From Burkholderiales bacterium (GTDB lineage Bacteria > Pseudomonadota > Gammaproteobacteria > Burkholderiales > SG8-39): a stretch of 64,000 nucleotides of DNA. The position numbers and the translations under genes are program-made. Positions 608 through 41,052 of the stretch are shown in pieces. The notes under the pieces are model-generated. The model was not told where the DNA came from and ran no database searches. It saw only the letters and a list, made by a program, of their open reading frames with translations. The first letter of the stretch is position 1; each line of letters starts with the position of its first letter. The DNA lies in the NCBI GenBank assembly GCA_038904015.1, contig JBCKKZ010000002.1:8369-72368 (forward strand), read 5' to 3'.

Positions 608-1226
608 TTTCATGCTTGCGGATCTGCCGGTCAGCATTCGCGCGGAGACTTCGCTCAACGACCCCGACACTTGCAAGTTCATCGTGAGCCGTACCTTGCA
701 TCCTGGCGGCCCCTTCTTTTTCGGCAACAAGGAACGGGCAGCCGGTTCGCCGCTCGCCGAGCGACTGTTCGCACTCCTTGGCGTGGCCAACGTGCTCATT
801 GCCGAGAGCGTGGTGACCATCTGCAAGGAGCCTATCGCCTCGTGGTCAGGACTGAAAGCAGCCATCGGGACGGCCATCCGGACGCAGCTGCTGACTGGCG
901 CGCCGGCGATCTTGGAGATGCATGCCTACACCAGCACGCAAGGAAGATCCGATGCAGAGCTTAATACGGCTGTTCAGGAACTCCTGGACAAGCAGGTCAA
1001 TCGTTCAATCGCTAACCACGGCGGGAAGATTTCGATTGTGGAGGTCCGGCAAGGGAAGCTTTTCATCACCATGAGCGGCGGCTGCCAGGGATGCGCGTCC
1101 TCTCAGGTGACGCTGAGGCAGGGATTCGAAGTCATGCTGAAAAGGGTCGCCCCGGAAATCGAGGAAATTGTGGATACGACGAACCACGCAGCGGGGAAGC
1201 AGCCGTACTACCCGCGCCATGAGTAG
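600..1226 (+). CDS. NifU/Nfu-type Fe-S carrier (Nfu N-terminal + NifU C-terminal domain)
   Basis: [18 protein letters not shown] (Nfu-N); [11 protein letters not shown]...[18 protein letters not shown] (CxxC). Confidence 0.85.
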
Positions 1227-3006
1227 CCCTATGACAAATCGACTGTCCCAGGAAACCTCCCCAACCGTCGCGACGCTAGCCGATCTCGCAAAGTTGGCAA
1301 ACTACTCGCTCATGGATACTCTCAACTGCGATCCTGACGCGAAAGCAAACGGAGCCGACCACACGCCGCGACAAGTCTTCACGGGCCACTATGTCCCCGT
1401 CAATCCCACGCCTATCAAAGACCCCGAGTACGTCGCGCACAGCAAAAACTTTTTTCGCGAACTTGGCTTTGCCGACAACATGGCACAGTTGCCCGAGTTC
1501 GTCCGCATGTTCTCCGGCGACATCTCGCACGCTCCGGAGCCGATGCGCAAGGTCGGTTGGGCGTGTGGCTACGCACTTTCCATCTTCGGCACCGAATACT
1601 ACCAGCAGTGCCCGTTCCAAACCGGCAACGGATACGGCGACGGTCGTGCAGTTTCCGTGCTTGAAGCCGTTATCAACGGTCGACGCTGGGAAATGCAGCT
1701 GAAAGGTGGCGGCCGGACGCCATACTGCCGCGGCGCGGACGGTCGCGCCGTCCTGCGCTCGAGTGTCCGCGAGTTCCTGGCACAGGAGCACATGCACGCG
1801 CTCTTCGTTCCAACGTCACGGTCTCTGAGTTTGTACGTTTCAAAAACGGAGAAGGTCAAGCGGCCGTGGTACTCGGAGGGCTCGCGCTCGGAGGATCCCG
1901 ACATGCTTATATCGGAGGCAGTCGCCATCTCGACGCGCGTCGCACCGTCGTTCATTCGGATCGGCCAACTCGAGCTCTTCGGTCGCCGTGCCCGCAAGCA
2001 GGAACACCCGAAAGCAATGGAGGAACTCGAGAAGATTGTGTTGCACTCGATCGATCGTGAGTACGCTGACGTCATCGACAAGAAACTAACCACCGCCGAA
2101 AAAGTGGTGTTGCTCGCGCGCGAGTTCCGCAGCCGCCTTACGTCGCTGGTGGCGAACTGGATCCGCGTCGGCTACTGCCAGGGCAACTTCAACAGCGACA
2201 ACTGCGCGGCCGGTGGCTTCACACTCGACTACGGTCCATTCGGATTCTGCGATGTGTTCAACCCGCACTACCAGCCATGGACGGGTGGCGGACATCACTT
2301 CTCGTTCCTGAACCAACCAGTGGCAGCGGAACGCAACTTCCACATGTTTTGGACGGCATTGCGGCCGTTGCTGACGTCGCATCCGGACTATCTGCGACAG
2401 CTCGACGAGATTCGAAGTGGCTTTTCGAAAGTGATGCAAGCGCAAATGGAGAAGATGTGGGCTGCCAAACTTGGACTTGGCACTTTTCACGCGGCGTTGT
2501 TCAGTGAGCTCGAAACGCTCATGGTGCAAACTCCTGTCGATTACACCATCTTCTTCCGCGAGCTCTCGATGCTACCTGACGACATTGGCCCACTCAAAAA
2601 AAGCTTCTACAAAGACTCGAAGCACGCCATGGCTTCAATGCACCCGACGGTCGAGACAGACCCCGAAGGGATGGACAAGCGCTGGTCCGAGTGGCTCACA
2701 AAATGGAAATCGCTCATCGGCAGCGCCAGCACGACCGACGCGAATGCTGCTCCGCCCCGCTCCCGTGAGGAGCTCTCTAGGCAGATGAAACTCGTCAACC
2801 CAAAATACAGTTTACGAGAGTGGTTCCTTGTGCCTGCGTATCAGCAAGCGACCGCAGGGAACTACTCTCTAGTTCGAGAGCTGCAGGAAGTCATGACGCA
2901 GCCATACGCCGAGCAGTCGAAGGACGTGGAGGCGAAATACTATAGGCTGAAGCCATCTGAGTTCTGTGAGGTCGGTGGATTGTCGTATGTGAGCTGCTCG
3001 TCGTGA
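1219..3006 (+). CDS. selO: SelO/YdiU-family protein adenylyltransferase
   Basis: [53 protein letters not shown]-terminal SCSS; start could be 1231. Confidence 0.9.
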
Positions 3007-4727
3007 GTTTTCAAAAACTGATCGGAGAGGTAGATGCCTCTGCCGAAGAGGTGGTCGTCGCCTACCACGAGCGGACAAAACACCACTTCCACCGCTACGC
3101 CGCCTCGCTTGGCTACATGGACTGGGCGACGCAGCCCGATCCGTTTCGGCGCTACGCGGGAGCGGATCTGGTTCGCCTCCCTCTGCCTAAAGCGGGTCGT
3201 CCGCTGCCCTATTGGCAGCTCTATGCGAGCGCGATCGTGCCGCCGATGCCACTGTCGTTGGCGTCGGTCTCGCTCTTTTTCCGGTATGCACTGTCGCTGA
3301 CGGCGTGGAAGCAATCTGGTGATACCACGTGGCCGTTGCGCGCCAATCCGTCGAGCGGGAATCTTCATCCGACCGAGGGCTATGCCGTACTGCCTGCGGT
3401 CGACCAGATCGGCGCTACGGCCGCCGTGTACCACTATGCGCCGAGGGAGCACGCTCTTGAACGGCGAGCGGTGCTCAATGCTGCGCGGTGGGCCGAGCTG
3501 ACTGGGTCTTTCGCTGAGGGGTCTTTCCCTGAGGGCTCCTTCTTTGTGGGTCTGTCGTCGGTTCATTGGCGAGAAGCCTGGAAGTACGGTGAGCGCGCGT
3601 TCCGTTACTGCCAGCACGACGTTGGACACGCGCTTGCCAGCCTGCGTATCGCGGCAGCGGCGCTCGGCTGGAGATTGGTGCTCCTCGACAGCGTTAGCGA
3701 TGGCACCCTCTCCAGTCTCCTTGGGCTTGACCGCGATGAGGATTTCGCGGCGGCGGAGCGCGAGGAAGCTGAGCTGCTCGTGTTGATTTCACCGGATTTA
3801 CCAGCACCGCTTCTGACGGAATCTAAGCCGCTGACGGCGCATGGCGGTGGCGTTCTTTGGCAGGGCAGGGCCAACACGCTGAGCCCCGAACACAGCGTCG
3901 AGTGGCCCGTGATCGACGCCGTTGCGCAGGCGACGCGACGCTGCGAAAGCTCGCCTATCACTGCAATCCTCGGTAAGGAGGACTTCTCCGGCTTTCCCTC
4001 GGAGGATGAGCTTTTCGGGACACCCATCCGTCAGGGCCTGCTCACCGCGGAGATGGCCATTCTTGGCCGCCGCAGCGCAGTAGCGCTGGATGGTTCGACG
4101 GCGATCTCGCGAGCAGCATTCTTGCGCATGCTCGCCCGACTGATTCCAACACAAGAGCGGCAAGCTATGCCCTGGGACGCGATCCCCTGGCGACCGCGCA
4201 TCCACATCGGGCTTTTCGTTCACCGTGTCGACGGCTTGGCACCTGGCATCTACGCGCTTGCCCGAGATCCGGACAAGGTCGATATCCTCAAGAGAGTGAT
4301 GCATTCAGAATTTTGTTGGCAGCGCGTGTCCGACTGCCCGCCAGGGCTCCCCTTGTACCTCCTCCAGGAGGGGGACTGTCGAGCGCTGGCGACCACCGTC
4401 TCCTGTGGCCAGGACATCGCCGGCGATGGCGCCTTCAGCCTGGCCATGATCGCCGACTACATGGACAGCCTGGCCACATATGGCAGCGGGTTCTACCGGA
4501 ACCTGTTCTGGGAGGCCGGCATGGTGGGCCAGCTGCTTTATCTTGAAGCCGAAGAGGAGGGCATCCGCGCCACCGGGATCGGCTGCTACTTCGACGATCC
4601 AGTCCATGCGGCCTTCGGGATCGAAGCACGCGAGTGGCAAAGTTTCTACCACTTCACTGTGGGCGGCCCGGTTGAAGACGGTCGGCTTACGACCTTGCCT
4701 GCGTACAATTTCGAGGAAGAACAATGA
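3003..4727 (+). CDS. SagB/ThcOx-family two-domain nitroreductase-like dehydrogenase
   Basis: [53 protein letters not shown]; GTGA overlap with selO stop. Confidence 0.85.
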
Positions 4728-4967
4728 GCATCCCGACCACTGTCCCTGCAATTCGGACAGAACCCCGGCAGACCAGAAAGGAGCGGCCACCGGAGGAAGA
4801 AAGTTGAGATGTCTTATATCGGCGGCTGACACTTTCATCCGCACCAAACCTGAATTCGCCGACGCCGCCCGATCCGTTTCGGTGGTACGCAGGAGTGGAT
4901 CTCTCATGACACCAGGTCGTACCGAACACGCAATGTGGCTGGGTAGGTATATGAATGAAGGGCTGGA

Positions 4968-5288
4968 ATGAGTGAGTGGGTGACGGTAGCGCGGGTCGAC
5001 GAACTCGCGCCGGGCGAGTGGCGGGTCGCGGATGTGGACGGCGCGCAGGTCGCGGTATTCAACCTCGACGGCCAACATTACGCCATCGAGGACGTCTGCA
5101 CCCATGATGCTGGACAGCTCACCGGCGGCAGCGTCGAAGGCGACCAGATCGTTTGCCCGCGCCACGGCGCACGCTTCTGCATCAAGACCGGCGCCGCGCT
5201 GACCGCACCCGCTTATGAAGCGACCGCCAAATTCCCCGTGCGCATTGAAAACGGCGTGATCCAAGTACGCGACGACCGCTGGGATTGA
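4968..5288 (+). CDS. Rieske [2Fe-2S] ferredoxin
   Basis: CTH...CPRHGARF Rieske motif, 106 aa. Confidence 0.9.
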   Translation: MSEWVTVARVDELAPGEWRVADVDGAQVAVFNLDGQHYAIEDVCTHDAGQLTGGSVEGDQIVCPRHGARFCIKTGAALTAPAYEATAKFPVRIENGVIQVRDDRWD

Positions 5289-5324
5289 TTCACGTATTGA
5301 ATCCGCCGAAGCAAAGGAACTCTC

Positions 5325-5735
5325 ATGGCAGACTTGGACAAAAACACGCCTTCCCCGACTGAAATCAAGCTGCATCAAAAATCGCGCGTGCTGGTAATTA
5401 CTTTCGCCGACGGCAAGCGCTTCAAGTTGCCCTATGAGTTCCTGCGCGTTTATTCACCCTCAGCGGCAGTGACCGGTCACGGGCCGGGACAGGAGGTGCT
5501 GCAAATCGGCAAGCAGAATATCGAGATCACGCAACTCGAGCCGGTTGGCACGTATGCGGTGCAACCGGTGTTTTCCGACGGCCACAATACCGGTATCTAT
5601 TCCTGGGATTATTTCTACACCCTGGGCATGAACCAGGACGAAATGTGGCAACGCTACTTGCGGCGAATGGAAGAGGCGGGCGCAAGCCGGGAACCCGTGC
5701 TGGGTGCCGTCCCGCAACGCCCCAAATCAAAGTAG
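5325..5735 (+). CDS. DUF971 (GBBH-N-like) protein, copy 1
   Basis: LPYEFLRVYSPSAAVTGHGPGQEVLQ...FSDGHNTGIYSW; RBS aaagga. Confidence 0.9.
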   Translation: MADLDKNTPSPTEIKLHQKSRVLVITFADGKRFKLPYEFLRVYSPSAAVTGHGPGQEVLQIGKQNIEITQLEPVGTYAVQPVFSDGHNTGIYSWDYFYTLGMNQDEMWQRYLRRMEEAGASREPVLGAVPQRPKSK

Positions 5736-5741
5736 CCGCGC

Positions 5742-7205
5742 ATGGATAACCGCGATGATTCCTGCCTGCTAAACAGCGCCGGCGAAGAATATTGGGCAGA
5801 CCCCGCTACGCCGCTCAAGGTCGTACTGATCAATCCCTACGAGCTGGGCCGGCAGCCGTTCGGCCTGGCCGAGCCGTCCGCATGGTTGAAGCAGGCCGGA
5901 TTCAGCGTGCAGTGCATCGACCTCTCTTTGCAAAAACTCGATCCGGCATTGCTTGCCGGCGCGAAGCTGGTGGCGCTGTATGTCGGCATGCACACCGCCA
6001 CCCGCATCGCGGTCGAAGCCATTCCGCGCATCCGTGAAATGGCGCCGCACGCGCATCTGTGCGTGTACGGCCTGTATGCGCCGATGAACCAAAAGCTGCT
6101 GCGCGGCCTCGGCGTGAAAACCATTCTGGGCGGCGAGTTTGAACCGGGACTGCTGAGCCTGGCGCAGCGGCTGCGCGCTGGGGAAACGTGCGATGTGCAA
6201 ATCGAGCCCGTGGTGAATTTAGCCAAAATAGACTTCATCACGCCTGATCGCTCCGGCTTGCCGCACCTGCAACGCTACGCTCATTTGATATTGCCGGACG
6301 GCGCTAAAAAAATACTTGGCTTCATTGACGCAAGCCGAGGCTGCAAGCACCTGTGCCGCCACTGCCCGGTGGTGCCGGTCTATGAGGGCAAGTTTCGCGT
6401 GGTGCCGGTCGATGTGGTGCTGACTGACATCGTGCAGCAGGTACAAGCGGGTGCTGAGCATATTTCCTTCGGCGACCCGGATTTTTTCAACGGCCCGACC
6501 CATGCCATGAAAGTGCTTGCGGCGATGCACGCCAAATTTCCCGACCTGAGCTTTGATGCCACCATCAAGATTCAGCACCTCATCAACCACGCCGAACTGC
6601 TGCCCCGGCTGAAGGCGGCGGGTTGTGTATTCATCCAATCGGCGGTTGAGTCGGTGGATGATAAGGTGCTGGAGTATTTCGCCAAAAACCACACACGCAC
6701 CGATTTTGAACGCGCTTTACAACTGTGCCGTGAAGCTGGCATATCCCTGGCCCCAACGTTTGTGGCATTCACGCCCTGGACCACATTGGCGGGCTACCTC
6801 GACCTGCTGCGCACGCTGGTGCGTTTGCGTCTGGTGGAGGCGGTGCCACCGATTCAGCTTTGCATACGCCTACTGGTGCCGGAAGGCTCCTATTTGCTTC
6901 AATTGCCCGGTTTCCGGGAATTGATTGAGGCGTTCGATGCGAAATTGCTCGGCTATCCGTGGCGGCACGCCGATCCTCGCGTGGACGCTTTGCAGCAGGC
7001 GGTGCAAGCCTGTGCCGCGCACGGCGATCAAGAGGGATTGGCGCGCAGCGACATATTCGAGCAAATTTGGCGGCTCGCGCACGCCGCGCTCGGCATCGAA
7101 GTGTTGCCACTCACCCGGGCGGATTTTGGACAACCCATCGCACGCCTGTCCGAGCCCTGGTACTGCTGCTCCGAGCCCACCGAGCAACAACTGCAGAGCT
7201 TTTGA
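5742..7205 (+). CDS. CUAEP/CCAEP-tail radical SAM protein with B12-binding-like N-terminal domain
   Basis: SRGCKHLCRHC (CxxxCxxC), INPYELGRQPFGLA N-terminus, C-terminal WYCCSEP. Confidence 0.85.
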   Translation: MDNRDDSCLLNSAGEEYWADPATPLKVVLINPYELGRQPFGLAEPSAWLKQAGFSVQCIDLSLQKLDPALLAGAKLVALYVGMHTATRIAVEAIPRIREMAPHAHLCVYGLYAPMNQKLLRGLGVKTILGGEFEPGLLSLAQRLRAGETCDVQIEPVVNLAKIDFITPDRSGLPHLQRYAHLILPDGAKKILGFIDASRGCKHLCRHCPVVPVYEGKFRVVPVDVVLTDIVQQVQAGAEHISFGDPDFFNGPTHAMKVLAAMHAKFPDLSFDATIKIQHLINHAELLPRLKAAGCVFIQSAVESVDDKVLEYFAKNHTRTDFERALQLCREAGISLAPTFVAFTPWTTLAGYLDLLRTLVRLRLVEAVPPIQLCIRLLVPEGSYLLQLPGFRELIEAFDAKLLGYPWRHADPRVDALQQAVQACAAHGDQEGLARSDIFEQIWRLAHAALGIEVLPLTRADFGQPIARLSEPWYCCSEPTEQQLQSF

Positions 7206-7215
7206 GCGGCCGGCC

Positions 7216-7510
7216 ATGAAGCGCGTTCTGCTGCTGTTGCCGACCACCAGTTATCGTAACGACGATTTCCTCGCCGCCGCAAAAAAAAATTGAATGTGGA
7301 TAATATCAGCGTCGCGAATTATTTCCATCAACTGGCGCCGCTATGGGGCATGAGTCCGATTCAGTCGGTGCCGTTCGATCAGCCTGAAGTCGCGCTGCAA
7401 CAGGTGCTCGCCGCGCTGGGACGCAAGCCCGACGTGGTGCTCGCGGTGGACGACAGCGGCCTGGAACTGGCGGCGCTGTTGCGCGAACGCTTGCACCTGC
7501 CGGGCTCACG
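7216..7510 (+). pseudogene. ATP-grasp protein, frameshifted and truncated
   Basis: MKRVLLLLPTTSYRNDDFLAAAKK then a frame change at the A9 run 7281-7289; the other frame continues HQLAPLWG...KPDVVLAVDDSGLELAALL, collinear with the intact paralog at 31041-32336; similarity ends near 7510. Confidence 0.8.
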
Positions 7511-7649
7511 CCGTCACGCCTGCCGCAAGCAAGGCAGGACGAGATCACGCAAACAGCGCACCGCGCCTGTGAACTGGCAGGGCTCACCAGCGGCCCGGTG
7601 CATGCCGGATATTCCCGTCAATCAGGCGAAATCCCCGACGTAAACCCGG

Positions 7650-7880
7650 CTACTCCGCCGGAGCGCGCAGGTCGGGATAATTCTCTTTCACTTCGTGACG
7701 GTTGCCTTCCGCTTCGTACCAGTAGAACTTATCGGGCTCTTCGGTCTTTGCGGTGGTTTTGTGAGTGCTGTCACAAAACGGCTGGTTCTTCGACAACCCA
7801 CAGCCGCATATATACTTGGTTTCCGTGCCCACTGTCACCGGATACGGGCCTGTCCGGGTTCTTTTGACGATCCTTGCCAT
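7650..7880 (-). CDS. CDGSH iron-sulfur domain protein
   Basis: ICGCGLSKNQPFCDSTH matches the CDGSH motif. Confidence 0.85.
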   Translation of the reverse strand: MARIVKRTRTGPYPVTVGTETKYICGCGLSKNQPFCDSTHKTTAKTEEPDKFYWYEAEGNRHEVKENYPDLRAPAE

Positions 7881-8029
7881 GAGCTATCCTTGAAAGTTGT
7901 GTATTAGGTGAATTGAGAAGAGCGCCGATGAGCGCGAATTGCAGCGCGACCACAAAATTGAAACGACTTTGTTCGCTGGGCTCATCATTCAAGTATAGAC
8001 AGAATTCGGCCACTGGTACGAGCGCTCGT

Positions 8030-8773
8030 TTACCAATAAGTCTCAACGGAAATTTGCCCCGGGTCCTTGCGCTTATTGAGCTTAAGGCCGCGACCCTCCA
8101 ACACGGAGCGCGTATCTTTCACCATGTCGGGATTGCCGACAATCATCACGTGCGAATGTTCGGACGAGATTGCGATGCCGGCGCGCGCTTCTAGCCGTCC
8201 GTCCTGGATCGCCGCGGGAACGCGGCCTTTGATGGCGAATGCCGTGTCCTCGCGGCTGATGAAAGGAATAAATTGAAATTGATCGGGATGGCGCTGCTTC
8301 AAAAGCTCTATGGTCTCTTGATAGGTCAGTTCATGGCCGTGGCGCACGGCGTGCACAAGAAAAATTTTCTTGAAACGCTGCCACGGTTCCTCGGTCTTGC
8401 AGATGGAAAGAAACGGCCCCAGCGCGGTCCCCGTTGAAAGTAACCATAGGTGCTCGTTTTGCGGCACGTCGGCGAGCGTGAAAAAGCCGGCTCCCTTGGG
8501 CGCGAGCAGCACCTTGTCACCTGGATTGAGATCATGCAGGCGCGGAGAAAGCGGGCCTTCCGGCACGATGATGGAATAGAATTCGTAGGGTCGCTCGCCC
8601 GGCGCATTCACGAAGGAATAAGACCGCCCCACTATGTCGCCATTGATTTGGAGCGCAAGCCGCCCGAATTGCCCGGCGCGGAACGGTTCGAGATTCGCAT
8701 CGATTTGCAGCGAATAAAGTTCTTTGGTCCAAAGCTTTTTGTTGACGATTTTGCCTTCTATCCATTTACTCAT
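8030..8773 (-). CDS. fpr: Ferredoxin/flavodoxin-NADP+ reductase
   Basis: MSKWIEGKIV, FRAGQF, RSYSFVNAP, LSTGTALGPFLS, C-terminal ETYW; the true start is 8773, not the 9139 ORF start. Confidence 0.9.
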   Translation of the reverse strand: MSKWIEGKIVNKKLWTKELYSLQIDANLEPFRAGQFGRLALQINGDIVGRSYSFVNAPGERPYEFYSIIVPEGPLSPRLHDLNPGDKVLLAPKGAGFFTLADVPQNEHLWLLSTGTALGPFLSICKTEEPWQRFKKIFLVHAVRHGHELTYQETIELLKQRHPDQFQFIPFISREDTAFAIKGRVPAAIQDGRLEARAGIAISSEHSHVMIVGNPDMVKDTRSVLEGRGLKLNKRKDPGQISVETYW

Positions 8774-8850
8774 TGTGTGGTAACCGCGGCAATCGCGGCG
8801 ATCAGCAGGATCGCGGCAAAAAAGTAAAAGATGGCGGTTTCGAAGAACAT
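8770..8850 (-). pseudogene. nuoJ: nuoJ 5' stub (26 aa)
   Basis: MFFETAIFYFFAAILLIAAIAAVTTQ* immediately after nuoI; stop overlaps fpr ATG (ATGA). Confidence 0.75.
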
Positions 8851-8853
8851 CGT

Positions 8854-9342
8854 CTAGCGGTAGGCCGCGTCGGCGGCGCGGTCCTTCGCGATCTGCTCCT
8901 CGTAGCGGTCGCCCACCGCCATCAGCATCGGTTTGGTGTAGATCAGGTCGCCGCGCTCTTCGCCGTGGTACTCGATCACGCGCGTCAAGACGACGGCGTC
9001 CACCGGGCAGGCCTCCTCGCAGAAGCCGCAGAAGATGCACTTGGTGAGGTCGATGTCGTAGCGCGTGGTGCGGCGTGTGCCGTCGGCGCGCGCCTCGGAT
9101 TCGATGTGGATGGCGAGCGCCGGGCACACCGCCTCGCACAGCTTGCAGGCGATGCAGCGCTCTTCGCCGTTGGGGTAGCGGCGCAGCGCGAGCAGCCCGC
9201 GAAAGCGCGGGCTCATCGGCGTCTTCTCCTCCGGGAACTGCACCGTGATCTTGCGCGCGAACAGGTGCCGGCCGGTCAGCATCATGCCGCGCAGCAGATC
9301 CAGCAGCAGGAAGGAACGGAAGAACTCAAGCGTGCGTTGCAT
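8854..9342 (-). CDS. nuoI: NADH-quinone oxidoreductase subunit I (2x[4Fe-4S])
   Basis: [21 protein letters not shown]...[13 protein letters not shown]. Confidence 0.95.
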
Positions 9343-9356
9343 GGCCGGGCCTCATT

Positions 9357-9415
9357 TTGCGTCCGCCGAAGGAATTCCGGAGCGCGTCGTGCAGGCGCTG
9401 CAGCTTGGGCGTCAT
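9357..9415 (-). pseudogene. nuoC: nuoC 5' stub
   Basis: MTPKLQRLHDALRNSFGGR directly after nuoB resembles betaproteobacterial NuoC N-termini; then jumps to the nuoI leader. Confidence 0.55.
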
Positions 9416-9443
9416 GTCGTATTAGCGATCGTCAGAGCGAGCG

Positions 9444-9920
9444 TCAGCGAGCGATCGTATTGGTGCGTTTGATCTTGTTCTGCAGCTGGATAATGCCGTA
9501 GAGCAAAGCCTCGGCCGTGGGCGGGCAGCCCGGCACGTAGACGTCCACCGGCACGATGCGGTCGCAGCCGCGCACCACCGAATAGGAGTAGTGGTAGTAG
9601 CCGCCGCCGTTGGCGCAGGAGCCCATCGAGATCACCCAGCGCGGCTCGGCCATCTGGTCGTAGACCTTGCGCAGCGCCGGCGCCATCTTGTTGCACAGCG
9701 TGCCGGCGACGATCATCACGTCGGACTGGCGCGGGCTCGGCCGGAATACGATGCCGAAGCGGTCGAGGTCGTAGCGCGCGGCGCCGGCGTGCATCATCTC
9801 CACCGCGCAGCAGGCGAGGCCGAAGGTCATCGGCCAGAGCGACCCGGTGCGGGCCCAGTTGATCAGCTTGTCGGCAGTGGTGGTGGCGAAGCCTTCGTGG
9901 AGTACGCCTTCTATTCCCAT
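9444..9920 (-). CDS. nuoB: NADH-quinone oxidoreductase subunit B (cluster N2)
   Basis: MGIEGVL...[12 protein letters not shown]...[12 protein letters not shown]...VPGCPP. Confidence 0.95.
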
Positions 9921-10060
9921 TCCAGGGCTCCTTTCATCCATTCGTAGACGAAACCCACGACAAGGAGCGCGAGGAAAACCATCATCATGACGCGGTCCTG
10001 ACGAGGTCGAGCAGACTCGCCGTCTGCGATAGTGATCGCTGCAGTTGGATGGGACGACAT
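9911..10060 (-). pseudogene. 49-aa chimeric ORF: DUF6522-like start fused in frame to the nuoA 3' end
   Basis: [49 protein letters not shown]; strong RBS GGAAGGAG; overlaps nuoB start. Confidence 0.75.
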
Positions 10061-10091
10061 GGTTAACTCCTTCCTAAATTTCCGCACCGCG

Positions 10092-12017
<1,926 letters not shown>

Positions 12018-12044
12018 ATTCGGTTAGAAGCCAGCAAAGGCGTT

Positions 12045-12374
12045 TCAAGCAGAAGTGGCGCGGAGGGCGTTCCGGGTCTTCAGACTGTCGACGGCGTGCA
12101 CCAGGGGCGCGTCGCCCTGCATCAGGTGGGCGATTGCGCCGTACACCAGCCGCTGGCTATCGAGCATGCTCCTGCCGGCGAACGCGGGCGACGTCACTTC
12201 GATGCTGAAGTGTCCGCCGCCGCCGTTGACCGCGGCCCGTGAATTGGGGATCTGCTGCTCGATGGCCTCGCGCAGCGCGTCGGCCGACAGGCCGAGCTTG
12301 GGCGCGAGCATCTCGGCATCGAGGGTGATCTCGCCGTCTGCGATGGTGATCGCTGATGCGGGAACAGGACTCAT
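12045..12374 (-). CDS. BolA/IbaG-family protein with a DUF6522-like N-terminus
   Basis: GGGGHFSIEVTSPAFAGRSMLDSQRLVY...HAVDSLKT (BolA); N-terminus [23 protein letters not shown]. Confidence 0.75.
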   Translation of the reverse strand: MSPVPASAITIADGEITLDAEMLAPKLGLSADALREAIEQQIPNSRAAVNGGGGHFSIEVTSPAFAGRSMLDSQRLVYGAIAHLMQGDAPLVHAVDSLKTRNALRATSA

Positions 12375-12997
12375 CGCGGTGCGGCTCCGGCGACAGGGCC
12401 CTTCACCGTCATGGGCTTGCCCGGGACGAAGTTGATGCAGACCCCGTCAAGCTCTTCCAGAAGCAGCGGCTCGCTCGCGAACCCGCACGCATAGGGCGCC
12501 TGTCCCTCCCGGCTGCAGCCGTCGCCTTCCAGATGCTTACACGACGCGCAGGTGCCGAAGGGAGGTTTGCCTCTCTCCCACGCCACCTGGCCGAGCATGC
12601 GCTGCAAGGCGTTGGCGAAGTGTCCGCGGACGCCCGAGGGTAGGGCGTCCGCGGCACGGACCAGGGCTTCGAAGAGGTCGTTCACAAGAATGGCCGTGGC
12701 TTTGTCGGTCAGAACAAGCCGGACACTGCGCCGGTCGGCCTCTGAGCGCATGCGTGTCAGATAGCCTTGGGTTTCGAGGTTTTTGATCGTCTGCGACGCC
12801 GTGCCCCGGGTCGTGCCATGGAACGCGGCGAAGGCGGACGGGGTGCGCGAGAAGCGGTTGGCCCGCGCGAAGTATCTGAGCACAGCCCACTGGACTGCCG
12901 TCAGCCCCTCCACGAGCCCCTCGCCGGACGCTATGCGCCCCAAGTGCAAGACCAGCTCCGCGATGGCGCGACTGTCCATTTTCGGCTCCTTGATCAT
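12371..12997 (-). CDS. MarR-family regulator with Cys-rich C-terminal tail, copy 1
   Basis: GLTAVQWAVLRY...TRGTASQTIKNLETQGYLTRMRSEADRRSVRLVLT; tail CASCKH...C...C. Confidence 0.9.
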   Translation of the reverse strand: MIKEPKMDSRAIAELVLHLGRIASGEGLVEGLTAVQWAVLRYFARANRFSRTPSAFAAFHGTTRGTASQTIKNLETQGYLTRMRSEADRRSVRLVLTDKATAILVNDLFEALVRAADALPSGVRGHFANALQRMLGQVAWERGKPPFGTCASCKHLEGDGCSREGQAPYACGFASEPLLLEELDGVCINFVPGKPMTVKGPVAGAAPR

Positions 12998-13004
12998 GCG
13001 CAGA

Positions 13005-13056
13005 TAGTAGCGTTTAAAGATTATATTGACAAGAGGATGGTTTCGAATCGATACTA
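13005..13056. promoter_or_regulatory. Promoter with two putative MarR operators (copy 1)
   Basis: TTGACA 13026-13031, GATACT 13050-13055 (18-bp spacer); boxes TAGTAGC-N5-AAGATTA and TGGTTTC-N5-GATACTA; conserved at 24386-24437. Confidence 0.65.
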
Positions 13057-13143: not shown

Positions 13144-13839
13144 ATGCGTTTAAGCATCTACCGCTACGACCCCGACAAGGACGCCAAGCCCTATATGCAG
13201 GACTACGACGTCCCGCTCGAGCAGTCCGACCGGATGCTGCTCGACGCCTTGGTCAAGGTCAAGGCGCAGGACGACAGCTTCTCCTTCCGGCGCTCGTGCC
13301 GCGAAGGCGTGTGCGGGTCGGACGCGATGAACATCAACGGCAAAAACGGGCTTGCCTGCATTATGCGCGTTGCCGACCTGAAGGAGCCCGTGGCAATCCG
13401 GCCGCTGCCCGGACTGCCGGTAATCCGCGACCTGATCGTGGACATGACGCAGTTCTTCAAGCAGTACGAGTCGATCAAGCCGTATGTCATCAATGACACG
13501 CCGCCGCCCGAACGCGAGCGGCTGCAGTCGCCCGAGGAGCGCGAGAAACTAGACGGCCTGTACGAGTGCATCCTGTGCGCCTGCTGCACGACCGCGTGCC
13601 CGTCGTTCTGGTGGAACCCGGACAAGTTCGTGGGGCCGGCGGGGCTGCTGATGGCCTATCGCTTCCTCGCCGATTCGCGCGACCAGGCCACCAGCGAGCG
13701 CCTCGACAATCTCGAGGATCCGTACCGGCTGTTCCGCTGCCATACCATCATGAATTGCGTCGATGTTTGTCCCAAGGGACTTAATCCGACCAAGGCGATC
13801 GGAAAGATCAAGGAGATGATGGTTCGGCGGATGGTGTGA
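13144..13839 (+). CDS. sdhB: Succinate dehydrogenase iron-sulfur subunit
   Basis: RRSCREGVCGSD, YECILCACCTTACPSFWWNPD, FRCHTIMNCVDVCPKGL. Confidence 0.97.
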   Translation: MRLSIYRYDPDKDAKPYMQDYDVPLEQSDRMLLDALVKVKAQDDSFSFRRSCREGVCGSDAMNINGKNGLACIMRVADLKEPVAIRPLPGLPVIRDLIVDMTQFFKQYESIKPYVINDTPPPERERLQSPEEREKLDGLYECILCACCTTACPSFWWNPDKFVGPAGLLMAYRFLADSRDQATSERLDNLEDPYRLFRCHTIMNCVDVCPKGLNPTKAIGKIKEMMVRRMV

Positions 13840-23635: not shown

Positions 23636-23755
23636 CTAATCGGTGATCGGTAAGCGCAGTGGGGCGAGCGCTTGAAGATGCGCTCGCAGCCGGCGGGCGA
23701 GCGTTTCAGGCGTGTGGTGCTCAACGGTCGTCGTCGCGGCGGGAACAGGACTCAT
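23636..23755 (-). pseudogene. 39-aa stub after marR copy 2 (MSPVPA start + BolA-like N-terminal fragment)
   Basis: MSPVPAATTTVEHHTPETLARRLRAHLQALAPLRLPITD*; first six codons shared with 12045-12374. Confidence 0.5.
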
Positions 23756-24378
23756 CGCGGTGCGGCTCCGGCGACAGGGCCCTTCACCGTCATCGGCTTG
23801 CCTTGGACGAAGTTGATGCAGACCCCGTCCAGCTCCTCCAGAAGCAGCGGCTCGCTCGAGAACCCGCACGCGTAGGGCGTCTGTCCCTCCCGGCTGGCGC
23901 CGTCGCCTTCCAGATGCTTACACGACGCGCAGGTGCCGAAGGGAGGTTTGCCTCTCTCCCACGCCACCTGGCCGAGCATGCGCTGCAAGGCGTTGGCGAA
24001 GTGGCCTTGGACACTGGGGGGTAGGGAGTCCGCAGCACGGACCAGGGATTCGAAGGGGTCGTTCGCAAGAATGCCCCTGGCTTTATCGGTCAGAACGAGC
24101 CGGACACTGCGCCGGTCGGCCTCTGAGCGCATGCGCGTCAGATAGCCTTGGGTTTCGAGGTTTTTGATCGTCTGCGACGCCGTGCCCCGGGTCGTGCCAT
24201 GGAACGCGGCGAAGGCGGACGGCGTGCGCGAGAAGCGGTTGGCCCGCGCGAAGTATCTGAGCACAGCCCACTGGACTGCCGTCAGCCCCTCCACGAGCCC
24301 CTCGCCGGACGCTATGCGCCCCAAGTGCAAGACCAGCTCCGCGATGGCGCGACTGTCCATTTTCAGCTCTTTGATCAT
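23752..24378 (-). CDS. MarR-family regulator with Cys-rich tail, copy 2
   Basis: Near-identical 208-aa paralog of 12371-12997. Confidence 0.9.
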   Translation of the reverse strand: MIKELKMDSRAIAELVLHLGRIASGEGLVEGLTAVQWAVLRYFARANRFSRTPSAFAAFHGTTRGTASQTIKNLETQGYLTRMRSEADRRSVRLVLTDKARGILANDPFESLVRAADSLPPSVQGHFANALQRMLGQVAWERGKPPFGTCASCKHLEGDGASREGQTPYACGFSSEPLLLEELDGVCINFVQGKPMTVKGPVAGAAPR

Positions 24379-24512: not shown

Positions 24513-24680
24513 ATGAGTGCCAAGAAAGAAAAGTTTGTTACTTCAGATACTTATACTTTAATTCAGGAGTTACCGATTTCGTCGCGCCAGCGTGAAGTTG
24601 CGCTGAGTATGTTGGGTAAAACCGAAGTGATAGCCAATGGCATCGTGTGGGTGGTTAACAGGATCAATCATCTGCGATGA
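24513..24680 (+). CDS. Small hypothetical protein (55 aa)
   Basis: RBS AAGGAG; stop overlaps the next ATG (ATGA). Confidence 0.45.
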   Translation: MSAKKEKFVTSDTYTLIQELPISSRQREVALSMLGKTEVIANGIVWVVNRINHLR

Positions 24681-25423
24681 AGGAATTTTCCCGGTGGCCA
24701 ATCACCCAAGAAAGTCAGGCAGCGAAGATGCTTTCCACCTTGGAGCAGGCGATCCGTCAGATGCAGGTGGGGAAACCGGTCATTTTGCTTGATGCCGACC
24801 ACCGGGAGGGCGAAGGCGATTTCGCCATAGCGGCGCAGTTCTGCACACCGGAGCTCATAAACTTTCTTCTATCGAAGGGCCGCGGCCTGGTCTGCCTTTC
24901 ATTGCCTCCGGCCGTTGCCGCCCGTATCGGCGTCAAGCCCATGGTGATCGAGGGTGAGTCGTCTTCGGACACGCCTTTTGGCGTGCCTATCGACATCGAC
25001 GATGGATCCTCCGGTATCGCCGCGTCGGCACGCTGTGCCACGATCAGGGCTGCCTGTGATGAATCCAAGTCCGCACGGCATTTCAAGCGTCCGGGACATG
25101 TCGCCACCCTGCTAGCCAACCCGCACGGGCTTCGAGGCCGTATCGGCCACACCGAAGCAGTGTTGGACCTGCTTCGCCTGGCCGGAATCGCCGGACCGGG
25201 AGTGTTGTGTGAAATCCTGAATGCCGATGGCGAGATCGCGACACCCGATCAACTCTTCGCGATCGGTAAAGAACACGCCATCCCCGTTCTCCACATCGAC
25301 ACGTTGCTCGAGCACCAGAGGCCGCAAGCGCATCGACCAGATTCTGGAGCAGCTCAGACGTCTGGGAACATGGCTGATGCCGTACAGAGTAGTGGAACCC
25401 GCTTGATCCGTTACGGCATTTAA
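24677..25423 (+). CDS. ribB: 3,4-dihydroxy-2-butanone 4-phosphate synthase (divergent)
   Basis: DADHREGEGD, GRGLVCL, RPGHV, RIGHTEA, VLCEI; alternative start 24728. Confidence 0.85.
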   Translation: MKEFSRWPITQESQAAKMLSTLEQAIRQMQVGKPVILLDADHREGEGDFAIAAQFCTPELINFLLSKGRGLVCLSLPPAVAARIGVKPMVIEGESSSDTPFGVPIDIDDGSSGIAASARCATIRAACDESKSARHFKRPGHVATLLANPHGLRGRIGHTEAVLDLLRLAGIAGPGVLCEILNADGEIATPDQLFAIGKEHAIPVLHIDTLLEHQRPQAHRPDSGAAQTSGNMADAVQSSGTRLIRYGI

Positions 25424-38308: not shown

Positions 38309-41052
38309 CTATTGGGTCTGGATGCCCGCGGCGGCAAACACGCTGCCGCCATCGCCCTGATACGCCTCGTAGACGTGCTCGAACAACACTTCCGACTTCT
38401 TGGCGTATAGCTCCTTCGTATACGCGCGCGGCAGCCCTTCGTCGAGCGTGTCCTCAATGGCGATACGTATCCTGGCGCGCGATTGAATCTTTTGCCGCCA
38501 TCCAAGCACAAGCAGCACATTGAGTCTGTTCAGCAGTTGTCGCGCGACTTTCTTTACTTCTTCCCGTTCCTCCGCCGACAGTCCCGGCCCCGGCCTTGTG
38601 AGGATGTCGAAGATCGTCAGTTCCTCCTCCCTCAGGTGCTCGCGCACGTGTCGATCCTGCTCCTCGGTAAGAACCCGCGTTAGCGCGAGCAAGTCCTTGA
38701 ATATCTCCTCGATATTCCGGCTGCCGTTGTTGTAAGCCTCGATCAGTGCCTCGAATTTCTCCAGGTAATCTGCCCGCGTGCGATTGAGCCGCTCCAGGTC
38801 ACTGCTGGTCGGCTTCTTTTTCTCGAAACGCTTCGCCAGCTTCTCGAAGTCGATCTTCGAGAGGTCGAGGCCCTGGAACCCGGCGCCCTTCTCCTTGATC
38901 TTGAACGGCTCGGCGCCGATCGAGCGGTCGAGCAACTCCTGTATGCCCTTCATCACGCTCGAAATGTCGGGCGGGTCCGTGCGATTGCGTATGTAGTCGG
39001 CAAGCGCTCGGATCGAGCCACAGCGCGTAGCGAACTCGACAGCTACGGGGTCCGGTTTCACCGCACCGTAGAGCGCATCCACTAGCCGCGCCCGCGCGAG
39101 GAAATCCCGCTTCACCGCTTCCGGGTTCAGCAGCCGGTTCGCGCCGTCCTCAACCGCCTGCGCCCGCTCGAACTTCTCGGCTGACGTGCCTTCAATCTTG
39201 GCGAGGTCCACGCCGCGCGCCTTGCAGAACGCCGTCGCATCGGCCACGGCCTGGCGCAATTCCGCCACCAACGCCTTCTTGTCCTTGACCGGCAGCGAAC
39301 CACCCTTGCCCTGGGCGTAGATCGCGAGCGCCCGTTCCAGCGACGCGAACACGTTCGCGTAGTCCACGATCGCGCCGCTGTGCTTGCCCGGAAACACCCG
39401 GTTCGCGCGCGCGATGGTCTGCATGAGGGTGTGGTTGCGCATCGGCTTGTCGAGGTACACGGTCGAGCAGCTCGGCGCGTCGAATCCCGTCAGCCACATG
39501 GCGCAGAGGAACACCAGGCGCAGCGGGTCGGTCGGGTCCTTGAACTTCTCGTCCAGTTCCTGCTCGTTCATGCGCTTGCGGTGCGGCACGATGTCGAGGC
39601 CGAGGGACTTCATCTGCTCGATCTCGTTCTGGCCGGGCGACACCACCACCGCCATGTCCGGCCTGTCCAGCCCCGGCCAGTGCTTGCGCACCTTGTCGTG
39701 CATCCTGAGCGCGGTGGCCTTGTCGATGGACACCACCATCGCCTTTCCCTGGAAGCCCCGGCCCGCGAAATGCCGGGCGATGTCCTGCGCCACCGTGTCC
39801 AGCCGGTCGTCGCGCGTGATGAGGTGGTACTGGCGCGACAGCTCCCTCTCCAGCCGGGCTTCCTGTTCCGAGTCCAGTTGCGCCTGCTCGATCAGGTCGT
39901 AGACCTCGTCGTTAAGGTCCGGATTGACGAGCTGCAGTTCGGGCGTGCGGTTCTCGTAGTAGAGCGGCACCGTGGCGCCGTCCTCGATCGACTGCTGGAA
40001 GTCGTAGATCGAGACGTAGTCGCCGAACACGTCGCGCGTCTTCTCCTCGCCCGCGATCAGCGGCGTGCCGGTGAAGGCGAGGAACATCGCCTTCGGCATC
40101 GCCGCGCGCATATTCATCGCCAGCGTGTCGTACTGGCTGCGGTGCGCCTCATCCGTCAGCACGATCACGTCCGCCCGGTCGCACAGCATCTCGGGCGTCT
40201 GGAACTTGTGGATCAGCGTGAATACGTAGCGGTGGTTCTCGGCCAGGAGCTGGCGCAGCTCCGCGCCGCTGCCGGCGTGGCAGGCGTCGCCCTCCGCCTC
40301 GCTCACCGCGCCGCAGGTCTTGAAGGTCTTGGCGATCTGGTCGTCCAGCTCCACGCGGTCGGTTACCACCACGAAGGTCCAGTTGCCCGGCACCTTGCGC
40401 AGGATCTTCTGCGCGAAGAACACCATCGAGAAGCTCTTGCCGCTGCCCTGCGTCTGCCAGAACACCCCGCCGCGGCCGTGCCCCGCCTTGCGCGCCTCCA
40501 GCGTCGCGGCGATGGCGTTGTTCACCCAGCGACACCCGGCTTCTTCAGCTCGATCACCACCCACGGCAGCCCATTCACGAACCCGATCAGGTCCGGCCGG
40601 CACGTATAGAGCTGCCCCGTGACCGTCATCTGCGAGACCAGCAGGAAATCGTTCGCCGCGGGATTCTCCCAATCCACCACCCGCACCCGCTCGTCCCGCA
40701 TCTCATCCCTCGTGCCGCCGCGCTCCCGGTCCGGCACCGTCACCTTCACGCCATCCTTCAGCAGCGCCCATACCTCCCGGTTCGCACCGGCAAGGGTCAT
40801 CGCCGACCGATCGCGCGTTAGCTCATCCACCGCGCTTGCGATTGCTTCGGTCGGGAGCTTCAGATTTAGCTTCTCCATCGCCGCGCGCCATCGCGGCGCC
40901 AGCACAACCTCGCCCGAAGTTTCGCGCCCGAGCGTGCCGCTCGGCCCGAACACTTCCTCCATCGCCGTCACCGTCTGCCAGCCAAGCTCGCCGAACAGCG
41001 CGATGGCGGGCTGCTCGACGAGCTGGTCTTCGGTGTAGGCGCGGGCGGTCAC
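38309..41052 (-). pseudogene. hsdR: Type I restriction endonuclease subunit R, frameshifted with internal deletion
   Basis: RPDLIGFVNGLPWVVIELKKPG jumps in another frame to WQTQGSGKS; DEAHRSQY; MWLTGFDAP; QTIARANR. Confidence 0.85.

Follow-up and report, generated by a model that had tools for sequence, protein, structure and literature searches.

Why would a bacterium keep separate copies of two subunits of respiratory complex I, an enzyme treated as the all-or-none product of a 14-gene operon? The question is raised by a 64,000-nucleotide (nt) stretch of a Burkholderiales genome (assembly GCA_038904015.1, contig JBCKKZ010000002.1, positions 8,369 to 72,368), hereafter the window, in which intact nuoB and nuoI genes lie among the remains of other nuo genes. 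The reading we favor, to which we give a probability of about one half, is that this reduced nuo stretch functions as a sub-operon within an iron-sulfur (Fe-S) island that has spread horizontally, and that its extra NuoB and NuoI supply the complex I of the host. The two genes were copied from a nuo operon of the host's own genus and set behind the MarR promoter of the island and a DUF6522-like leader. The DNA between and around them was deleted stepwise, and the leftover stubs still provide ribosome-binding sites and stop/start overlaps. The same two subunits were recruited independently in other host lineages.

Anatomy of the reduced nuo stretch

The reduced nuo stretch lies on the minus strand and reads, from 5′ to 3′, nuoA 3′ stub, nuoB, nuoC 5′ stub, nuoI, nuoJ 5′ stub, and fpr, with nuoD to nuoH absent. 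A first-pass annotation had read this order from the letters, and profile matches and alignment confirmed it. We add to that account that a foreign leader is joined in translation to the nuoA stub and that the stretch appears to lie inside a longer operon headed by a MarR-family regulator.

The intact nuoB gene occupies an open reading frame (ORF) of 165 codons (9444-9941, minus strand). Its likely start is the ATG at 9920, which follows an AAAGGAG, overlaps the stop of the nuoA-stub ORF, and gives a protein of 158 aa. NuoB is full-length by its match to the NCBIfam NuoB profile (NF005012; 273.6 bits versus a cut-off of 116, residues 13-163) and also matches Pfam PF01058 (98.8 bits versus a cut-off of 27). 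All four cysteines that we take to ligate cluster N2 are present, two as a tandem CC, one in SCANGGG, and one in PGCPP, and the corresponding columns are invariant in the genus alignment. The operon context of nuoB is missing, since all that remains of its usual neighbors is a nuoA tail of 25 codons and a nuoC head of 19. The nuoI gene (8854-9342, minus strand) encodes a 162-aa protein with two CxxCxxCxxxCP motifs that align to those of solved chains, and it too is full-length (NCBIfam equivalog NF004538; 299 bits versus a cut-off of 135, residues 3-162). Judged by intact ORFs and low ratios of nonsynonymous to synonymous change (omega 0.05 and 0.22, respectively), nuoB and nuoI are not pseudogenes, whereas the nuoA, nuoC, and nuoJ pieces are.

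Every stub ORF terminates on or just within the start of the next gene. The nuoA remnant is carried by a 49-codon fusion ORF (9911-10060, minus strand) made of a 15-codon DUF6522-like leader, a 9-codon linker, and the last ~25 nuoA codons. The final 26 residues match positions 74-99 of the 99 in the Pfam Oxidored_q4 (NuoA) profile, and alignment to the chromosomal nuoA of the host and the operon of a relative places the onset of nucleotide homology at ~9990. The sequence AGGAAGGAG precedes this ORF, a 26-nt repeat of its leader is found at 12330-12355, and the ribosome-binding site of nuoB is contained within it. The nuoC stub ORF (9326-9415, minus strand) has 29 codons, 19 from nuoC and then 10 out of frame. 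Alignment to the operons of the host and a relative shows that the nuoC head abuts the final bases of the spacer between nuoH and nuoI, which the ORF reads across before stopping 17 nt inside nuoI. Finally, the 26-codon nuoJ head (8770-8850, minus strand) is joined a few bases 5′ of the fpr ATG, which its TGA overlaps.

Recurrence, origin, and selection of the island nuoB and nuoI genes

The arrangement recurs in L111, an independently assembled 12-kb contig from a microbial-mat metagenome, where the order is MarR, a leader::nuoA fusion, nuoB, nuoC′::′nuoH, nuoI, a 26-codon nuoJ stub, fpr, and a gene for a CDGSH-type protein. Relative to the window, amino acid identity is 98% for NuoB, 90% for NuoI, 95% for Fpr, and 95% for the CDGSH protein; nucleotide identity is ~95% for nuoB, 97-98% for fpr, and 82-93% for nuoI. 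The presence of the same junctions in a second assembly indicates that the arrangement is more than chance and disposes of the concern, raised in the first-pass annotation, that it might be unique to this assembly. Because the stub::nuoA and nuoJ′::fpr junctions are common to both, the two variants descend from one capture. The nuoC remnant of L111 is longer, with ~106 nuoC codons in frame with the last ~11 nuoH codons; as the window has lost most of this nuoC′::′nuoH remnant, the paring was stepwise. A check of 40 related genomes found no case of nuoB adjacent to nuoI.

We searched for all 14 Nuo proteins in 137 MarR loci from other assemblies (1.31 Mb). Full-length NuoB is encoded in four of them (L020, L111, L140, and L147) and NuoI in three (L111, L142, and L029, the last cut by the contig end at residue 145), with NuoI fragments in two more (L067 and L069). 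NuoA, NuoC, NuoD, and NuoH are represented by stubs only, and NuoE, NuoF, NuoG, and NuoJ to NuoN had no matches in these loci, so that nuoB and nuoI are the only intact nuo genes across the 137. In the Polaromonas-type islands, nuoB lies downstream of ispH, with a nuoA 3′ tail again kept upstream.

A contig of a Polaromonas bin (G041:C204, locus L089, 1-4648) carries nuoF′, nuoG, nuoH′ (98 codons), and nuoI, followed by unrelated DNA. This partial operon has 80-82% DNA identity to the bin's own operon, and its NuoI groups with that of L142, which has MarR on the same contig, and with a fragment on plasmid pE3SP1. In the C204 lineage, the membrane subunit alone is deleted and the Fe-S subunits F, G, and I are retained. 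These data bear on the rationale offered by the first-pass annotation, in which the retained respiratory parts were those with the clusters nearest the quinone site. That rationale is not supported, because the island cargo consists of Fe-S enzymes generally (ThiC, LipA, aconitase, GltBD, and a radical SAM protein, with IspH in relatives) and because C204 keeps nuoF and nuoG and deletes only nuoH. Since nuoF and nuoG are kept there, a rule in which Fe-S-bearing polypeptides are kept and cluster-free partners are dropped fits better. Only in the lineage of the window have nuoE, nuoF, and nuoG been lost.

The host has an ordinary nuo operon elsewhere, with nuoA to nuoH on contig C64 and the nuoI tail, nuoJ, and nuoK on contig C86. 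Island copies are closest to the chromosomal copies of their own hosts: NuoB of the window is 93.3% identical to that of its host (91% at the DNA level) and 82-88% to those of other genomes, NuoB of G041 is 94.6% identical to its host copy (others, 81-84%), and NuoI of genome G042 is 96.6% identical to its host copy (others, 77-87%). The C204 NuoI is 88.5% identical to the chromosomal copy of its host, and NuoI of the window is 83-92% identical to same-genus orthologs. In maximum-likelihood trees, the island and chromosomal NuoI of G042 pair with support of 100/100; the NuoI of L142, C204, and pE3SP1 form a 100/100 trio next to the chromosomal copy of G041; and the window and L111 NuoI group together (100/99) within the genus. 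For NuoB, the window and L111 sequences join the genus clade (95/95), and the four Polaromonas-type rows form one clade (99/97). Identities and trees together support at least three independent captures of nuoI and at least two of nuoB, from the host's own lineage.

The nuoB genes of the window and L111 differ by 3.5 nonsynonymous and 19.5 synonymous changes (omega 0.05; binomial test versus neutrality, p = 4e-9), and the nuoI genes by 23.5 and 29.5 (omega 0.22; p = 1e-6). The Polaromonas-type nuoB genes of L020 and L140, which have the nuoA 3′ stub in common, give an omega of 0.06 at dS 0.8. Relative to genus orthologs, island nuoB has a median omega of 0.093, level with chromosomal pairs (0.099), and island nuoI has an omega of 0.175, above chromosomal pairs (0.111). 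The terminal branch of nuoB shows no excess of nonsynonymous change (4 nonsynonymous/15 synonymous versus 27/134, p = 0.75), and NuoB has just three island-specific residues, all at variable positions. The view that nuoB and nuoI were kept by selection and are not chance survivors is therefore upheld by these counts, by the independent captures, and by the survival of no other intact nuo gene in the 137 loci.

The MarR-headed operon and the Fe-S island

The gene at the head of the operon (12371-12997, minus strand; copy B) encodes a 208-aa MarR-family regulator (Pfam MarR_2). Its stop is overlapped (ATGA) by the start of a fusion ORF (12045-12374, minus strand) with a ~41-codon DUF6522-like 5′ part and a BolA-like C-terminal part (Pfam BolA, residues 48-95; weak DUF6522 match, residues 8-41). 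This is followed by thiC (10092-11975, minus strand; 627 aa), which encodes a radical-SAM-family Fe-S enzyme (Pfam ThiC_Rad_SAM, E 3.9e-186), and then by the nuo stretch. Beyond it lie fpr (8030-8773, minus strand), encoding a 247-aa ferredoxin/flavodoxin-NADP+ reductase (Pfam NAD_binding_1; NCBIfam PRK10926, 276.1 bits, under the equivalog cut-off of 390, with residues 12-258 of the submitted stretch covering profile positions 1-248 of 248), and, as the last operon gene, that for a 76-aa CDGSH-type iron-sulfur domain protein (7650-7880, minus strand; Pfam zf-CDGSH). The sole sigma-70-like site on the operon strand lies upstream of marR (13004-13032, minus strand; TTGTCA-17-TACTAT), a predicted promoter by consensus match only. 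The terminator scan gave one weak minus-strand site within the operon, inside the nuoA stub; overall, nine terminator-like matches were found versus a shuffle expectation of 5.2 (sd 2.6), that is, no excess. Intergenic gaps are short, and the genes from thiC through that of the CDGSH protein appear to form one operon headed by the MarR regulator.

Three such MarR modules occur on the contig, each consisting of ~85 bp of upstream sequence, the 208-aa MarR gene, and an ORF that starts on the marR stop, and together they make three near-identical repeats of ~750 bp each. The MarR copies (12371-12997 and 23752-24378 of the window, and 3129-3755 of the contig, left of the window) are 93-99% identical in amino acid sequence, and the promoter sequence is kept in all three modules. 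Copy C (23752-24378, minus strand) heads gltB-gltD-ETF-QO. The ORF after each marR begins with MSPVPA and then differs, continuing as a 137-aa unknown gene, its stub, or the BolA part. The DUF6522-like 5′ end has the look of an expression platform used repeatedly and of a hot spot for recombination. No mention of DUF6522 was found in the literature searched.

The C-terminal extension of the MarR protein contains five cysteines, of which Cys150, Cys153, Cys171, and Cys187 are invariant in 134-135 homologs and Cys161 is kept in 120 of 134. We infer that the protein may sense Fe-S clusters or redox status through its four invariant cysteines. No Rfam family matched anywhere in the window and no tRNAs were found; no thiamine pyrophosphate riboswitch at thiC and no flavin mononucleotide riboswitch at ribB (24677-25423) was detected with Rfam gathering thresholds. 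In view of how thiC and ribB are generally regulated, the lack of any Rfam match suggests that the cargo has been stripped of native control.

The surrounding island carries assembly and regulation genes (sufBC, two A-type carriers, and iscR). Around the modules are further genes for NDH-2, folE, lipA, a rhodanese, an Mrp/NUBPL-like NTPase-DUF971 fusion, Nfu, SelO, a SagB-like dehydrogenase, a radical SAM protein with a CUAEP/CCAEP tail, a SerA-like dehydrogenase, ETF-QO, gltBD, ribB, a VIT1 transporter, DUF169, aconitase, and a lone sdhB. The 208-aa Cys-tailed MarR stands beside suf/iscA/erpA, NDH-2, aconitase, lipA, Nfu, Mrp, and SelO. The stand-alone sdhB gene (13144-13839, plus strand; 231 aa; Pfam and NCBIfam matches) is divergent from marR copy B and, lacking sdhA, sdhC, and sdhD, gives the island another case of a respiratory complex represented by a single Fe-S subunit. 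Island SdhB is 81-85% identical to the chromosomal SdhB of the genus and 86% identical to a copy in another family. As it is no closer to the genus than to another family, not every complex subunit of the island was taken from the present host, and we rejected the idea that such subunits are always captured from the current host.

The MarR protein marks 57 loci in species-representative Beta-, Gamma-, and Alphaproteobacteria genomes at 62-88% identity, together with a few more distant ones, and relatives are encoded on 212 metagenome-contig stretches, of which the best 80 were kept. Cargo proteins co-travel with MarR at 85-98% identity. None of 33 other genomes of the host genus has the MarR gene, and the island is therefore accessory to this one. 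The scanned ORFs include no integrase domain, no repeated boundary element was found, and a megablast search of 7600-12400 against plasmids returned thiC matches only. We regard the island as widespread but barely described, and its MarR protein as a new candidate Fe-S- or redox-sensing regulator.

Several neighboring features were observed in passing. The genes for SelO, the 574-aa SagB-like dehydrogenase, DUF971, and the CUAEP/CCAEP-tail radical SAM protein form a cluster at 1168-7205 that co-travels with the island in other genomes; the radical SAM protein matches NCBIfam NF040546 with 606 bits, and its tail reads CCSEP in the window. The fusion of an Mrp/ApbC (NUBPL-like) P-loop NTPase with DUF971 (GBBH-like_N) lies at 1-607 of the window and 7722-8975 of the contig, and DUF971 occurs again as a free-standing gene at 5325-5735. 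Next to the radical SAM gene, the gene that follows it (6925-7643) is broken into a short N-terminal part and a 117-aa ORF, the end of which matches the C-terminus of a 510-aa ORF of L111, making this a second place at which the window is more deleted than L111. The island is followed by a defense-type region (34400-64000) with Fic, two partial HsdM, a type III-like methylase/helicase set, an AAA ATPase, a SocA/Panacea antitoxin domain, a UvrD/PD-(D/E)XK protein, and the R subunit of a type I restriction system, which is divided between two ORFs (38309-41052).

Competing explanations and known parallels

The use of island NuoB and NuoI as swap-in subunits of the chromosomal complex I, as the first-pass annotation proposed, is a plausible hypothesis. 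We envisage that the MarR protein would sense Fe-S cluster or redox status via its four invariant C-terminal cysteines and would release the operon under cluster-destroying or cluster-starving conditions. Fresh NuoB (N2) and NuoI (N6a and N6b) would then be made alongside Suf, A-type carriers, Nfu, Mrp/NUBPL-like proteins, Fpr, and other cluster-bearing enzymes. These extra subunits would feed the complex I of the host, their likeliest role being to stop labile cluster-bearing subunits from limiting new assembly; replacement in place of damaged NuoB or NuoI would be less likely. Capture from the host lineage would keep both proteins compatible with the other twelve subunits of the host.

Several observations weigh against this reading. 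NuoB and NuoI are buried in the Q-module, which makes their exchange within an assembled complex doubtful. The window comes from a bin that has 123 contigs and is 63% complete, and the membership of its contig (C2) in that bin is uncertain. Gene conversion from chromosomal copies could mimic purifying selection, because it would bring in changes that selection had already screened and so exaggerate the constraint. In this regard, the central ~390 nt of the chromosomal nuoI are unassembled, and the two contigs that carry its outer parts (the first 120 nt of C64 and the last 211 nt of C86) break off at the point where identity with the island copy begins. This break pattern hints at a shared tract, arising through gene conversion or assembly repeat collapse, and is a better hint of conversion than the identities of individual nuoI segments, which are only suggestive. 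Two NuoB matches (E <= 1e-50) were found in only one of 49 MarR-bearing genomes (G041). The NuoI fragments of L067, L069, and plasmid pE3SP1 are dead, so NuoI is not always maintained. Finally, the NuoI of the window has itself changed: its terminal branch carries nine nonsynonymous and eight synonymous changes versus 40 and 162 on pooled chromosomal branches (Fisher p = 0.004), and it has Leu51 and Leu119 where 16 of 16 genus orthologs have His and Glu.

At eight positions, this altered NuoI departs from residues that never vary among the 14-16 genus orthologs covering them, most strikingly at positions 51 and 119. The residues lost there, the His of RFRG-x-HALRRY and the Glu of PVDAIVE, which are conserved across bacterial and mitochondrial homologs, are also present in three solved complex I chains (Paracoccus-type 8qby_I, plant 6x89_S8, and fungal 7zm7_I) and are retained in the L111, G042, and Polaromonas-type copies. 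The Leu51/Leu119 form recurs in three database proteins (P0002 to P0004) that are 97-98% identical, come from three contigs, and show few mutual differences, and so it is not an error. It could be a hardened isoform, it could reflect drift away from complex I, or it could be the native allele of the host species.

Drift of this kind would suit a first alternative, in which NuoB and NuoI have left complex I and act as soluble or peripheral electron carriers in an island circuit, with NuoI, for example, serving as an 8Fe ferredoxin-like acceptor that passes electrons from Fpr to radical-SAM enzymes, IspH, or cluster repair. The conservation of nuoB-nuoI-fpr-CDGSH as a unit in two island variants would fit, as would the lack of a separate ferredoxin or flavodoxin gene among the scanned ORFs of the window (plasmid pE3SP1 has fdxA), the loss of His51 and Glu119 with raised nonsynonymous change, and the persistence of the Leu/Leu variant in P0002 to P0004. 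We nevertheless consider it unlikely, since NuoB shows no comparable change, the His and Glu are kept in the L111, G042, and Polaromonas-type copies, and the island NuoI of G042 remains 96.6% identical to its host copy. Moreover, repeated capture from the host itself is needed by a complex-compatible part and not by a free carrier.

The genes could instead be functionless leftovers, a piece of a nuo operon dragged in by illegitimate recombination and now decaying, in which nuoB and nuoI have not yet been hit. Such decay is visible in the nuoA, nuoC, and nuoJ stubs, in the further paring of the window relative to L111, in the internal deletion of its ATP-grasp gene relative to L111, in the NuoI fragments of three other islands, and in the rarity of second copies among carriers. 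Yet neither ORF is damaged and no cluster cysteine is missing, comparison of the island variants gives omega values of 0.05 and 0.22 (0.06 in another lineage), the intact survivors across 137 loci are nuoB and nuoI only, and there were at least two to three independent captures. The deletion end-points also hug both ORFs, sparing start regions and stop/start overlaps, and we judge this explanation quite unlikely.

Decidedly improbable, in our view, is a role of the extra proteins outside complex I as a 4Fe-4S cluster buffer or sink, or as decoys for assembly or proteolysis factors. Both are small proteins with 4Fe-4S clusters only, and they are encoded together with cluster carriers (ErpA/IscA, Nfu, Mrp-DUF971, BolA, and CDGSH), but we neither recall nor found a precedent, generic ferredoxins would be equally suitable, and capture from the host's own operon each time is left unexplained. 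An assembly chimera of the metagenome bin is hardly credible. The bin is incomplete, the contig has three ~750-bp near-identical repeats, and the break in the chromosomal nuoI falls where that gene equals the island copy; yet L111 shows these junctions at ~5% sequence difference, the NuoI variant recurs in three other database proteins, and no long repeat of a kind to misguide assembly is common to the deletion junctions.

Supply of extra NuoB and NuoI to the complex I of the host thus remains our preferred explanation. A broader and more tentative extension, possible but on balance doubtful, is that the island is a transferable "spare-parts kit" for the Fe-S proteome under the control of a cysteine-based sensor. 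In such a kit, the enzymes would travel with the island; the respiratory subunits would be recaptured in each host and perhaps matched to it by gene conversion; and the Leu51/Leu119 NuoI would be a hardened isoform for times of stress. If this were true, bacterial complex I could be sustained under cluster-destroying stress by supplying its labile subunits only. To our knowledge, maintenance at the level of single subunits is known only for the mitochondrial N-module and photosystem II. The repeated choice of NuoB and NuoI, together with the carriage of SdhB, suggests that these cluster-bearing subunits limit respiration under stress and that cells benefit from making them separately. The island therefore offers an entry point to two questions: whether bacterial complex I is repaired or topped up subunit by subunit, and which Fe-S proteins are most vulnerable in habitats where oxygen is plentiful or clusters are damaged in other ways.

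Compared with the canonical nuoA-N operon, the island encodes full-length NuoB (PSST/NDUFS7) and NuoI (TYKY/NDUFS8) with all cluster-binding cysteines, but it does so without nuoC-H and nuoJ-N, behind a foreign promoter and leader, and on a mobile island; the NuoI of the window further departs from canonical NuoI in having Leu for the conserved His51 and Glu119. The closest described relatives are the Polaromonas plasmids pE3SP1, pE5SP1, and pE10SP1, whose suf/isc/nif and lipA genes have been described as extra Fe-S assembly capacity (Ciok et al. 2018, PMC6015842). We found the island on pE3SP1 and pE10SP1, with flanking IS6 copies. The pE3SP1 island is of the same type, with MarR, NDH-2, aconitase, iscA/erpA, sufBCDSU, bolA, grxD, nifU, folE, lipA, rhodanese, P-loop NTPase, SelO, and SagB-like genes, and differs in having only the dead NuoI fragment. 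The term "NADH" is absent from the main text of that paper, beyond which the literature search found no description of stand-alone nuoB/nuoI or of the island.

Like integron-type cassette arrays, the island places diverse cargo, variable between relatives, behind one promoter. It differs in having no integrase among the scanned ORFs and no attC-like boundary repeat family, and its junctions are illegitimate-recombination scars within genes; on these grounds, we rejected an integron cassette array. A functional parallel is the extra psbA (D1) of cyanobacteria and cyanophages, likewise a spare, damage-prone subunit of a membrane complex that is mobile and fitted to its host. Turnover and exchange have been demonstrated for D1, whereas we know of nothing comparable for bacterial NuoB or NuoI. 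The closest regulatory parallels are the stress regulons of Escherichia coli, in which SoxRS (acnA, fumC, and fpr) and OxyR/IscR-Suf swap in robust or extra Fe-S-related proteins. There, as we propose here, a sensor lifts the repression of genes for cluster assembly, for an NADPH reductase, and for replacement enzymes; the island differs in being mobile, in being headed by a MarR-type regulator, and in carrying the single respiratory subunits NuoB, NuoI, and SdhB.

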